Origin: an uncultured Clostridium sp.
GTDB taxonomy: Bacteria > Bacillota > Clostridia > TANB77 > CAG-508
NCBI GenBank assembly: GCA_947568605.1
Contig: CANOPV010000001.1
Location: forward strand, 1 to 28,684
Direction of reading: 5' to 3'
DNA: 28,684 nucleotides
The notes under the pieces are model-generated. The model was not told the DNA's origin. It saw only the letters and a list, made by a program, of their open reading frames with translations, and did not search any database. Shown here one piece after another: positions 25,794-28,684 of this stretch. Positions within the stretch are counted from its first letter, which is position 1, and each line of letters opens with the position of its first letter. Both the position numbers and the translations under genes were made by a program.

Positions 25794-26081
25794 ATGAAAA
25801 AGAATTGTTATGATGAATTATATAACATTCATAAAGAAAGGAAAATCAGGGCTTTTTATGTTGATCTATTATGTGAGATACTTCTACTTCGTTATGAGTT
25901 TTCTTATAAGGAAACAACAAAAAAAGATGTATTGAGTGAACTACCAAGTTTGAGAGAATTTAAAAGTACAGAAGTAGAAAAAATTTATAATGATAGTCTT
26001 AAGATATTAGAATTAAGATATAGAATTAAAGTTTTAGATGATAGTCCATTAAAATTTGTAAAAGAAAATGAAATATCATAA
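25794..26081 (+). CDS. Hypothetical protein (95 aa)
   Basis: SD aaggcgg. Directly downstream of motif copy 2. Confidence 0.7.
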   Translation: MKKNCYDELYNIHKERKIRAFYVDLLCEILLLRYEFSYKETTKKDVLSELPSLREFKSTEVEKIYNDSLKILELRYRIKVLDDSPLKFVKENEIS

Positions 26082-26193: not shown

Positions 26194-26346
26194 ATGAAGA
26201 ATAAAAAGGTAACTTATAAGATTATAAATGAATTTAATGTTGATAAAGATAAAACAAAGGACGATTTAAAACTTTCTTTTAATAAGAAACTTTTAAAGGT
26301 AATACTTTCTATTGAAAAAAATGTATATGGGCGCTGTAATTCCTAA
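26194..26346 (+). CDS. Small basic protein (50 aa) upstream of the recombinase; candidate recombination directionality factor
   Basis: GGGGG SD. MKNKKVTYKIINEFNVDKDKTKDDLKLSFNKKLLKVILSIEKNVYGRCNS. The function is inferred from position only. Confidence 0.55.
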   Translation: MKNKKVTYKIINEFNVDKDKTKDDLKLSFNKKLLKVILSIEKNVYGRCNS

Positions 26347-26415: not shown

Positions 26416-28509
26416 ATGAAGAAAATAGTTGAAACAGTTGATATTATTATAAGGAGAGTGGTACTTTATTTAAGACTATCAAAAGAAGATGTTGATAAAC
26501 CTACCAAAGAAGCTATTAGTGAGAGTATTAAGAATCAAGAACTAATGCTTCGTGAAGAAGTGGCAAAACACCCAGATTGGGAAATTGTAGGTGTTTATTG
26601 TGATGAAGACTTTTCGGGAGCAGGAACATATAGGCCAGACTTTGAAAGAATGATTACTTCTTGTGAAAATGGCGAAGTTGATATTGTTTTATGTAAAAGT
26701 CAATCAAGATTTTCAAGAGATATGGAAGTCATCGAAAAATACTTACATAATAAATTTCTTATGTGGAATGTTAGATTCGTTAGTATTGTAGATAATGCTG
26801 ATACTGATAATAAAGGTAACAAAAAAGCAAGACAAATCAATGCACTTGTTAATGAGTGGTTTTTGGAAGATTTATCTGATAACATCAAAGCGACTTTTCG
26901 TACAAAATGGCAAAATGGCGAATGTACTGCTTCTTTCGCAAAATATGGGTTAATGAAAGATATAAAGAATAAAAATCATTTACTTATTGATCCTATTGCT
27001 AGTGAAGTTTTAAAACAAATTGCTGATATGCTTTTCGCAGGATATGGGCAAGATAAAATTGCAAAGACTTTGGAAGATAAGAAAATTCCTAGTCCTTATG
27101 AATATAAAGCGATGAATGGTTGTAAATTAAAACTTCCTATTTCAAAGAAAGAAGATAAATACTCTATTTCAAAAGCTGGTCAATATATTGTTAGAATTTC
27201 TTTATATAATGAGTATAAACAAATTTTAAGAAACATAAAATCTGTTTATGTATTTGGTACTGATAATCAAAAAGAATATAATTCAAAATTTCATATTAGA
27301 GTTAGATCCATAAGTGAAGATTTAAAGTTATACTATACCACTGATAATTTATCATCTAGTATAGATAACCTAGACTTTAATAATATTGATTTTTCTAGTG
27401 ATGTATGGCACGAACTAAAAACAAATGATATGATTCCAGATGATGTCTATTATATTGGAAGTGCAAATGTTGAATTAGATAGACTAATAGAAACTGGTTT
27501 TGAAATAGAAATAGAACTTGAAGAAAACAAAGGTCATAATACTTATAAAATGTTTACAAAATCAAAAGCAGATGATACCGATACACAATTTAATTTTGAA
27601 TATGAAATAAGAAGAAGATACAAATGGTCTGGACGTGTTATTTATAATATGTTAAGAGATCCTATTTATAATGGTACTTTAATACAAGGTAAAACTAGAA
27701 GAATAAGTTATAAAAATCACAAATGTATAAATGCAAAAAAAGAACACTGGGTTACAAGTGAAAGTGCTCTTGAAAAAATATTTGATGATGAAAAGTGGTT
27801 ATCTATTCAAACAAAATTAAATGAAGTTAGTAGATCAGGTGCAGACGGTGTTAAACATATCTTTTGTGGAAAAGTTTATTGTTCTGAATGTGGTAGTATA
27901 TTGCGTAAAAATAGTAGTTGTCAAAACAAAGATAGCGAAAAAGTAGAATATCTATTATGTAAGGATAAAGAGAACAAATGGGCAAATTGTGATAATAACA
28001 AGTCTATCAAATTAAATGTATTAGAAGATTATGTTTTATCAGCTATGAATGGCTTGTTAGATGAGTATTATGATAAAGATACATTAAAAGAACTTCACAA
28101 AGAAGTTATTGATAAAGATTTATTCAAAGATCAATTAGATAGTTTTAATAAAGAGAAAAACGACATTCAAAATCTTATAAAAAGAAAAAAAGAGATATTT
28201 CAACAACTTTATGAAGATCGTGCTACTGGAATTATTGATGATAATGATTTCACTTCCCTACGAGCAAAGTATAAGGAAGATGTAGATAAGTTAAGCGAGA
28301 GATTATCTACTATAGATAATGAATTAAAGTTAATTGAAATGAAACAAAACAAGTTAAAAGATAGAGATAGTCTTCTTTCAAAGTATAGACATTTCGATGT
28401 TCTTACACCAGAACTACTTGATGAATTTATAGATAAGATCAAGGTAGGAAAAATTGATGATGAAACAAATACTAGAGAAATTAGAATCGTTTGGAACTTC
28501 CAAACTTAA
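26416..28509 (+). CDS. Large serine recombinase (integrase) with a ~155-aa insertion in the recombinase domain
   Basis: YLRLS (Ser22), [22 protein letters not shown], recombinase-domain W and L.DPIY.G, Zn ribbon CSEC...C...C, coiled coil, ends EIRIVWNF. Confidence 0.95.
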
Positions 28510-28512
28510 TAA

Positions 28513-28555
28513 ATTACTTATGTGTGGATAATGTCATCGGTGCAACTGGTGCCAC
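28513..28555. other. attR junction: element arm (28513-28540), TGC/GC core (28541-28543), host arm
   Basis: Inverted partner of 71-98, four bases after the integrase stop. Abrupt switch to GC-rich collagen codons. Confidence 0.85.
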
Positions 28556-28684
28556 TGGACCTCAAGGCTTACAGGGAGTACAAGGTCCTCAAGGTGAAGT
28601 AGGAGCGACTGGTGCACAGGGTGTACAAGGAATTCAAGGACCTACTGGTCCTCAAGGTGCGACTGGTGCTACTGGAAATCAAGG
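28542..28684 (+). pseudogene. 3' part of the interrupted collagen-like gene
   Basis: [48 protein letters not shown], a perfect Gly-X-Y run extending beyond the window. Confidence 0.88.

Follow-up and report, generated by a model that had tools for sequence, protein, structure and literature searches.

What is a folded domain of some 157 residues doing inside the DNA-binding core of a site-specific recombinase? The question is raised by a 28,684-nucleotide stretch from an uncultured Clostridium sp. (contig CANOPV010000001.1; hereafter the window), which is an entire contig of a metagenome-assembled genome (MAG; 68% complete, 1.25 Mb, 25.7% GC). The window holds a complete 28,480-bp integrative and conjugative element (ICE) with both of its junctions, inserted in a collagen-like gene. 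The plus strand, to which all coordinates below refer, carries at positions 26416 to 28509 a gene for a large serine recombinase (LSR) of 697 aa, assigned to the TndX/TnpX-like DUF4368 type from its open reading frame (ORF), Pfam matches and structure superposition. We found that the recombinase domain of this LSR is split by a segment modelled as an autonomous β-sandwich, that the segment is restricted to one clade of LSRs, and that most members of this clade, in contrast to their closest insert-less relatives, lie in DNA encoding collagen-type repeats.

The initial annotation of this gene had reported a large extra segment of about 155 aa in the recombinase domain, at a place normally occupied by a short loop. 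Both statements are borne out. Pfam splits the Recombinase family (PF07508) into two stretches, the C-terminal one covering residues 398 to 470 and profile positions 34 to 101, and finds no family match between residue ~245 and residue 397. The N-terminal part of the domain (residues 171 to 244; positions 26926 to 27147), delimited by Pfam and a full-length AlphaFold2 (AF2) model, comprises strands beta6 and beta7, helices F and G and the IPSPYEY loop, and the C-terminal part (residues 402 to 475; positions 27619 to 27840) comprises W404, helix H, β-hairpins and helix I. Between them lie residues 245 to 401, which correspond exactly to nucleotides 27148 to 27618. In the 12 insert-less genomic loci that we collected, the same gap holds 4 aligned residues, and the alignment with an insert-less paralogue on another contig of the same MAG (C90) jumps from query residue 244 to 420. 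Because the insert-less relatives and the paralogue both skip the segment, residues 245 to 401 represent a true insertion in a loop of normally ~20 to 25 residues. The reading frame is open throughout the insert, and the catalytic residues R20, S22, R98 and R101 as well as four zinc-ribbon Cys residues are invariant among 70 homologues, as expected from the earlier description of an intact frame and intact catalytic motifs.

An intein, a nested mobile insertion or an assembly artefact would also interrupt a known domain, but nothing beyond that interruption speaks for any of them. Inteins are recognized by a Cys/Ser ... His-Asn + Cys/Ser/Thr signature; inspection of the translation by eye did not reveal this pattern at the borders of the insert (K|ED ... 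YK|WS), Pfam returned no Hint/intein family match, and the predicted fold is a β-sandwich. Moreover, hundreds of independent assemblies contain this insert, among them that of the cultured species Thomasclavelia cocleata. The self-splicing element that the initial annotation had considered is thus not what we observe, and an explanation of this kind is exceedingly improbable.

AF2 run on an alignment of 74 inserts modelled the segment as an independent, nine-stranded, all-β domain with high confidence (mean pLDDT of 89.7, pTM of 0.84), and the same fold was recovered in the full-length model of the LSR (pLDDT of 82.4). The strands (residues 255 to 264, 271 to 281, 292 to 299, 303 to 308, 346 to 354, 359 to 368, 377 to 386 and 395 to 400) fall on the segments that had been picked by eye for their alternating pattern, and shape searches agree with the suggestion of an Ig-like sandwich, in that the fold appears to be of the Ig-like, cohesin or CnaB kind. 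These models show an autonomous β-sandwich domain. By itself, it gave no significant match in Pfam, NCBIfam or PHROG, and Foldseek searches of the PDB and of the AFDB clusters returned no specific fold relative (best PDB E-value of 0.016). A Foldseek-independent structure scan (VIA) gave a best Z score of 7.1, with YcnI, cohesins, mu-homology domains and pilins, in the range typical of a common arrangement.

In the full-length model, the insert is flanked by a short helix (residues 241 to 245) and by a helix starting with a conserved Trp (residues 406 to 414). In the LI integrase, the recombinase domain is the first DNA-binding domain (DBD1) and binds the inner half-site; its core is a helix-turn-helix (HTH) subdomain made up of helices F, G and H (PMC3783163). 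According to the model, the insert of our LSR occupies the G-H connection of this HTH core, directly before the third helix, and by likeness to the HTH domains of resolvases helix H would be the recognition helix. The rest of the protein is conventional. The resolvase-type catalytic domain with its nucleophile S22 (residues 15 to 168; positions 26458 to 26919; PF00239, E-value of 2.9e-20) matches those of TnpX and TP901-1 in the PDB. The recombinase domain is followed by a zinc ribbon with the invariant residues C489, C492, C515 and C525 (residues 483 to 544; positions 27862 to 28047; PF13408, Zn_ribbon_recom), a coiled-coil motif at residues ~553 to 650 (positions 28072 to 28365), in which AF2 places long antiparallel helices at residues 554 to 648 (554 to 569, 571 to 603 and 609 to 648), and a C-terminal DUF4368 module (residues 652 to 695; positions 28369 to 28500; PF14287, E-value of 1e-8).

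No characterized LSR that we compared has a domain at this place. The full-length model superimposes on integrase-recombination directionality factor complexes (9y66 and 9dxf, Z scores of 17 to 18), Bxb1 (9iu8, 15.8), the Listeria LI integrase (4kis, 13.2) and phiC31 (9teo, 13.1), and these and other solved serine integrases share its overall architecture. However, their chains of 287 to 592 residues, aligned over stretches of 227 to 470, leave no room for a sandwich of 157 aa, and helices G and H are not separated by a domain in any of them. A β-hairpin loop is the element of DBD1 known to vary (PMC11722253), whereas our enzyme is distinguished by a whole domain. TndX of Tn5397 and TnpX of Tn4451/3 have the same succession of resolvase, recombinase, zinc-ribbon, coiled-coil and DUF4368 modules, but TndX aligns to our LSR in two pieces, at 27.5% identity, without the insert. 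The segment is thus absent from the structurally characterized LSRs and from TndX; the initial annotation had named its common occurrence in characterized LSRs as a finding that would refute its reading. Full-length TnpX is 707 aa long.

We then asked how the insert is distributed. All of the best 120 database homologues, with identities down to 42% and lengths mostly of 680 to 703 aa, have 110 to 170 residues at its position. A scan of species-representative genomes yielded 80 loci, 68 with the insert (118 to 164 aa) and 12 without it; the insert-bearing ones stem from gut MAGs whose labels include Bacilli, Tenericutes, Mollicutes, ‘Mycoplasma sp.’, Acholeplasma sp. CAG:878 and Clostridium sp. 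CAG:914. Cultured T. cocleata has an annotated protein of the same 90%-identity cluster, WP_301082339.1. Among 399 genomes sampled evenly from the class of the host, the insert was found only in the genome of the window itself, and this sparse occurrence fits a sporadic, mobile gene. Three more LSRs without insert are encoded in the same MAG, on contigs C90, C100 and C84. The closest one, on C90, is 46% identical over the catalytic domain and is read in two frames at the would-be insert junction, through either a frameshift or an assembly error.

A phylogenetic tree calculated from 516 shared columns, with the insert masked and two paralogues as the root, grouped the insert-bearing LSRs in one clade (support of 0.88), with an insert-less group (support of 0.99) as its sister. 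This topology indicates a single gain of the insert at the base of the clade. No loss was found among the 69 tips of the tree, which span less than 40% identity. The idea that the domain defines an undescribed integrase subfamily was thus well founded, in that the insert-bearing LSRs are monophyletic and apparently undescribed. Our literature search, whose coverage was incomplete, retrieved no paper on this insert, on collagen-targeting LSRs or on a domain in the recombinase domain. What is new here is that the insert is a folded, adhesin-type sandwich, that it marks one clade, which is also the clade that targets collagen codons, and that the crossover is placed at the AC of a Thr codon, as detailed below.

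The window contains both ends of the ICE, and its target site could thus be reconstructed. The 5′ part of the interrupted collagen-like gene, which is the host arm B of attL, occupies positions 1 to 64 and reads GPTGPAGAPSTIAGPTGPAGA. It is followed by the putative crossover dinucleotide AC (65 to 66) and by the left end of the ICE, the attP arm P′ (67 to 92), which mirrors the right end at 20 of 26 positions. On the other side, arm P (28519 to 28544), which ends with GCA, precedes the second putative AC dinucleotide (28545 to 28546), and the collagen-like gene continues from 28547 to 28684 as host arm B′ of attR, with Gly-X-Y (GXY) repeats up to the end of the contig. The left junction thus reads ...GGAGCT-AC-TGCTCCGATGACAT... 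and the right junction ...ATGTCATCGGTGCA-AC-TGGTGCC.... Exact removal of the 28,480-bp ICE, from AC core to AC core, rebuilds a continuous collagen-like frame with open GXY repeats. Collagen-type DNA is present at both ends of the contig, where the assembly stopped within the GXY repeats on either side.

We placed the crossover at AC because this core, shared by attL and attR, fits the window, the genome G001, in which the left end of the ICE adjoins another flank, and eight further loci. For the elements of 2.8 to 5.3 kb at the latter (L002, L007, L024, L041, L043, L046, L053 and L067), the AC-Thr model gives regular, in-frame sites; in elements of opposite orientation, GT is found on the recombinase strand. 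Placements of the crossover at CG, GC/TGC, GA or CT were dropped, as they produce mismatched cores or an irregular G-x-T-A-T-G attB. Intact irregular sites of the latter type number 0 in ~2 Mb of related DNA, versus 121 regular sites. Crossover would therefore fall on the AC of a Thr codon within a sequence that codes for G-P/A-T-G-P/A. The shared AC, the symmetric attP arms and the in-frame attB are indirect signs that the LSR may catalyze conservative attP × attB recombination with a 2-bp stagger.

As reconstructed from the junctions, the attB of the insert-bearing clade is a short, nearly palindromic sequence, (G/C)CA-AC-NGG(T/A)CC, which encodes G-P/A-T-G-P/A. We compared loci with and without the insert using those with at least 70 nt downstream of the recombinase gene. 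The motif CA-(AC or GT)-NGG is present within 85 nt of the stop codon in 47 of the 59 insert-bearing loci, in none of the 12 insert-less loci and in 4% of background windows. Similarly, at least three GXY triplets follow the gene in 41 of the 59 insert-bearing loci, versus 0 of 12 insert-less loci and 3.5% of background windows. The collagen-codon motif is thus a property of the insert-bearing clade and not of its insert-less sister. Collagen-like genes are hit repeatedly. In several loci, namely L006 (5585 to 7213), L010 (5181 to 6770) and L001 (7799 to 9238), a second LSR gene without insert (479 to 542 aa) is located 0.1 to 2 kb from the first element.

The clade is not confined to collagen-like genes. 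One and the same LSR protein (P0140), which is also annotated in T. cocleata, is found in a collagen-like gene at two loci (L093, which is on a T. cocleata contig, and L096), while two others (L094 and L095) have it in a prophage tail-fibre gene. In the latter case, the insertion is at the 3′ end of the gene, at a site ...CCC-AC-ACC... whose reconstruction encodes G-A-G-G-V-G-G-V followed by the natural stop codon. A near-identical ICE end accompanies P0140 at both targets (L094/L095, which correspond to genome G001, L013 and L099). This behavior matches that of the DUF4368, TndX-like ‘multi-targeting’ LSR clade described by Durrant et al. in 2022 (PMC10083194), as an identical enzyme likewise uses more than one target gene, although two target genes are below the ‘>3’ cut-off of that study (PMC10083194). 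As with TndX and TnpX, the LSR is situated at the end of a conjugative or mobilizable element, and it targets a short motif surrounding a fixed dinucleotide. It differs from them by its preference for collagen-type codon DNA and by its putative AC core, the crossover dinucleotide of TnpX and TndX being GA.

What, then, does the insert do? One can ask whether it does anything, as it might be a tolerated passenger of a permissive surface loop, without a specific role and kept since its clean loss is rare or destabilizing. Its length varies between loci, its charge is not conserved, and the 74 aligned inserts share only one invariant column. Identity to distant homologues is 32% for the insert, compared with 36% for the C-terminal half of the recombinase domain and 40% for the zinc ribbon. 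In pairwise comparisons with five relatives, the ratio of nonsynonymous to synonymous substitutions (dN/dS) is 0.22 to 0.42 for the insert, the highest of all domains, versus 0.06 to 0.10 for the catalytic domain and 0.12 to 0.19 for the rest of the recombinase domain. Nevertheless, these values are well below 1 and therefore denote purifying selection, ~10 positions are nearly invariant, and a diverse alignment yields a high-confidence fold. As the insert was never lost along the tree and its dN/dS remains below 0.45, we consider it unlikely that it is a mere passenger.

Our preferred interpretation, which we hold tentatively, sees in the insert an accessory module of DBD1 with a site-selection or architectural role. 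It would be neither catalytic nor the primary DNA-reading part of the enzyme, but would help the LSR to select short, tandemly repeated sites or to assemble productively on them, either by touching flanking DNA locally or by influencing how neighboring subunits and domains pack. Three observations point in this direction. Within DBD1, the insert is anchored beside the putative recognition helix. The host motif, which is conserved, falls in the inner half-site of attB, the part bound by DBD1 in solved LSR-DNA complexes (PMC3783163, PMC11722253). Finally, the gain of the insert coincides on the tree with the use of collagen-type attB sites. In a stronger and more doubtful form of this proposal, the insert would be a portable site-selection domain that lets the LSR use very short, near-palindromic attB sites made of codon repeats (GGNCCA-AC-NGGNCC) and choose the register in tandem arrays.

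Several observations weigh against a function in site selection. Both the insert and the preference for this target go back to one branch of the tree, and their correlation therefore amounts to a single event. The insert is the least constrained domain of the LSR. Its net charge, −8 here and ~0 on average (range of −11 to +11), is not consistently basic, while the recombinase and zinc-ribbon domains are positively charged. Its orientation relative to DNA is deduced from HTH geometry only. One insert-bearing subclade (L047, L048, L050 to L052, L054, L057 and L070) resides not in collagen-like genes but in the codons for ‘EPTGALD’ of ABC ATPases, in the D-loop region; that site nonetheless has the same CCA-AC-NGG core as the collagen G-P-T-G codons. 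Lastly, β-sandwich modules of this kind usually bind proteins or serve as spacers. The proposal in the initial annotation that the module recognizes its target in repetitive collagen DNA is thus upheld in part: the clade with the insert does use CA-AC/GT-NGG sites, which is circumstantial support, whereas the single correlated event, the ABC-ATPase subclade and the lack of a basic charge limit that support. The observations speak neither for nor against the other roles that the initial annotation had named, a fused directionality or partner-binding domain or a sensor. Separately, two insert-less LSRs (L081 and L090) are found in another part of ABC ATPase genes (LAVEPDILLLDE).

The last point against DNA contacts leads to a different function, namely, that the insert is a protein-protein interaction module. 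It might dock onto the enzyme's own coiled coil, onto the other dimer of the synapse or onto a small factor encoded by the element or the host, and it would then tune synapsis or the balance between integration and excision rather than the choice of DNA. The fold class is typical of binding modules, such as cohesins, mu-homology domains and adhesin stalk domains, and the neutral to acidic charge of the insert is in keeping with such a role. In a solved serine integrase, the coiled coil and the opposite catalytic domain touch DBD1 (PMC11722253). In addition, TnpX and TndX integrate and excise without a separate directionality factor (PMC2475636), which makes a built-in control of directionality plausible in this lineage. 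However, a protein-docking function leaves the coincidence of the insert with the change of target site unexplained, and we regard it as a possibility on the improbable side. Two small ORFs without family match, at positions 25794 to 26081 (95 aa) and 26194 to 26346 (50 aa), are located directly upstream of the LSR gene and might encode a directionality or partner factor. L093 and L007 have similar small ORFs 5′ of the recombinase gene.

Whatever its function, the insert has left traces of its origin. A phmmer search with the insert alone against 1.8 billion representative sequences matched only 14 proteins. Two of them are surface proteins of 1308 and 1577 aa (P0129 and P0131), in which the match lies at residues ~900 to 1050, just N-terminal of SdrD_B domains. 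Comparison of the insert profile with these proteins by hhalign confirmed the relationship over 131 to 136 columns (probability of 97.8% and E-value of 7e-13 for P0129; probability of 97.5% and E-value of 6.5e-12 for P0131). The homologous modules, at residues ~900 to 1050 of P0129 and ~895 to 1050 of P0131, belong to no Pfam family. In the ESM Atlas, the top match of a shape search with the insert was a cluster in which every member has SdrD_B (TM score of 0.67), and the next was one containing DUF11 (0.65), these domains being located elsewhere in the proteins and not at the matched part. A protein atlas search with the insert gave no usable match. The surface module is rare, as a word-based search found it in four very large SdrD_B/MucBP proteins, one of which is encoded in an ordinary chromosomal cell-envelope neighborhood.

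The only detectable relatives of the insert thus form a module of giant Gram-positive surface proteins, and capture from such a protein is inferred from the resemblance. Judging from these similarities, the insert would most simply be an adhesin-type β-sandwich acquired by a recombinase gene. It shares remote sequence homology and a similar shape with the stalk modules found near SdrD_B, SpaA or MucBP domains, but the latter belong to secreted, wall- or membrane-anchored proteins, in contrast to the insert, which sits in a cytoplasmic DNA enzyme. The ICE itself encodes a TED-SpaA adhesin, which we rejected as the donor because it is unrelated to the insert. The ICE further encodes a VirB4-type ATPase, a coupling protein, a MobL relaxase, TrbL and a C5 methyltransferase.

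The arrangement of the locus resembles that of the intervening elements of sporulation genes that are excised by LSRs, such as skin with SpoIVCA in sigK, SPbeta with SprA in spsM and gin with GirC in gerE. As in those systems, an LSR element splits a gene and its exact excision rebuilds the ORF. Here, however, a whole ICE of 28.5 kb, complete with its transfer apparatus, intervenes, and the same enzyme also occurs in a prophage tail-fibre gene. The split collagen-like gene is BclA-like, and its expression probably falls late in sporulation. Spo0A is encoded in the host MAG, as shown by the presence of Spo0A_C, and SpoIVA was not found in this MAG, which is 68% complete. Glycosyltransferases accompany BclA-type exosporium genes, and a gene for a family 2 glycosyltransferase and/or a tetratricopeptide repeat protein adjoins the targeted collagen-like gene in several loci that are unrelated to one another: L002 to L005 (~1 to 2250), L007/L008 (5815 to 6891) and L093 (12968 to 13966).

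LSRs are leading tools for the insertion of large DNA, and their DNA-binding domains have been engineered from very few architectures. We describe a whole natural clade of LSRs with a folded extra domain in the HTH of DBD1 and a simple, clearly delimited target of ~14 to 16 bp. If the insert contributes to site choice or synapsis, it would provide a new handle on LSR specificity; should it act as a portable site-selection domain, it would represent a new targeting principle for LSRs that could be put to use in the design of compact landing sites. A dispensable insert, in turn, would mark a place beside the recognition helix where added domains are tolerated. Bench tests are feasible since the element is also found in cultured T. 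cocleata. Through this clade, ICEs and mini-elements of gut Bacillota settle in collagen-like genes, whose products are probably at the spore surface, and in codon strings that resemble them.

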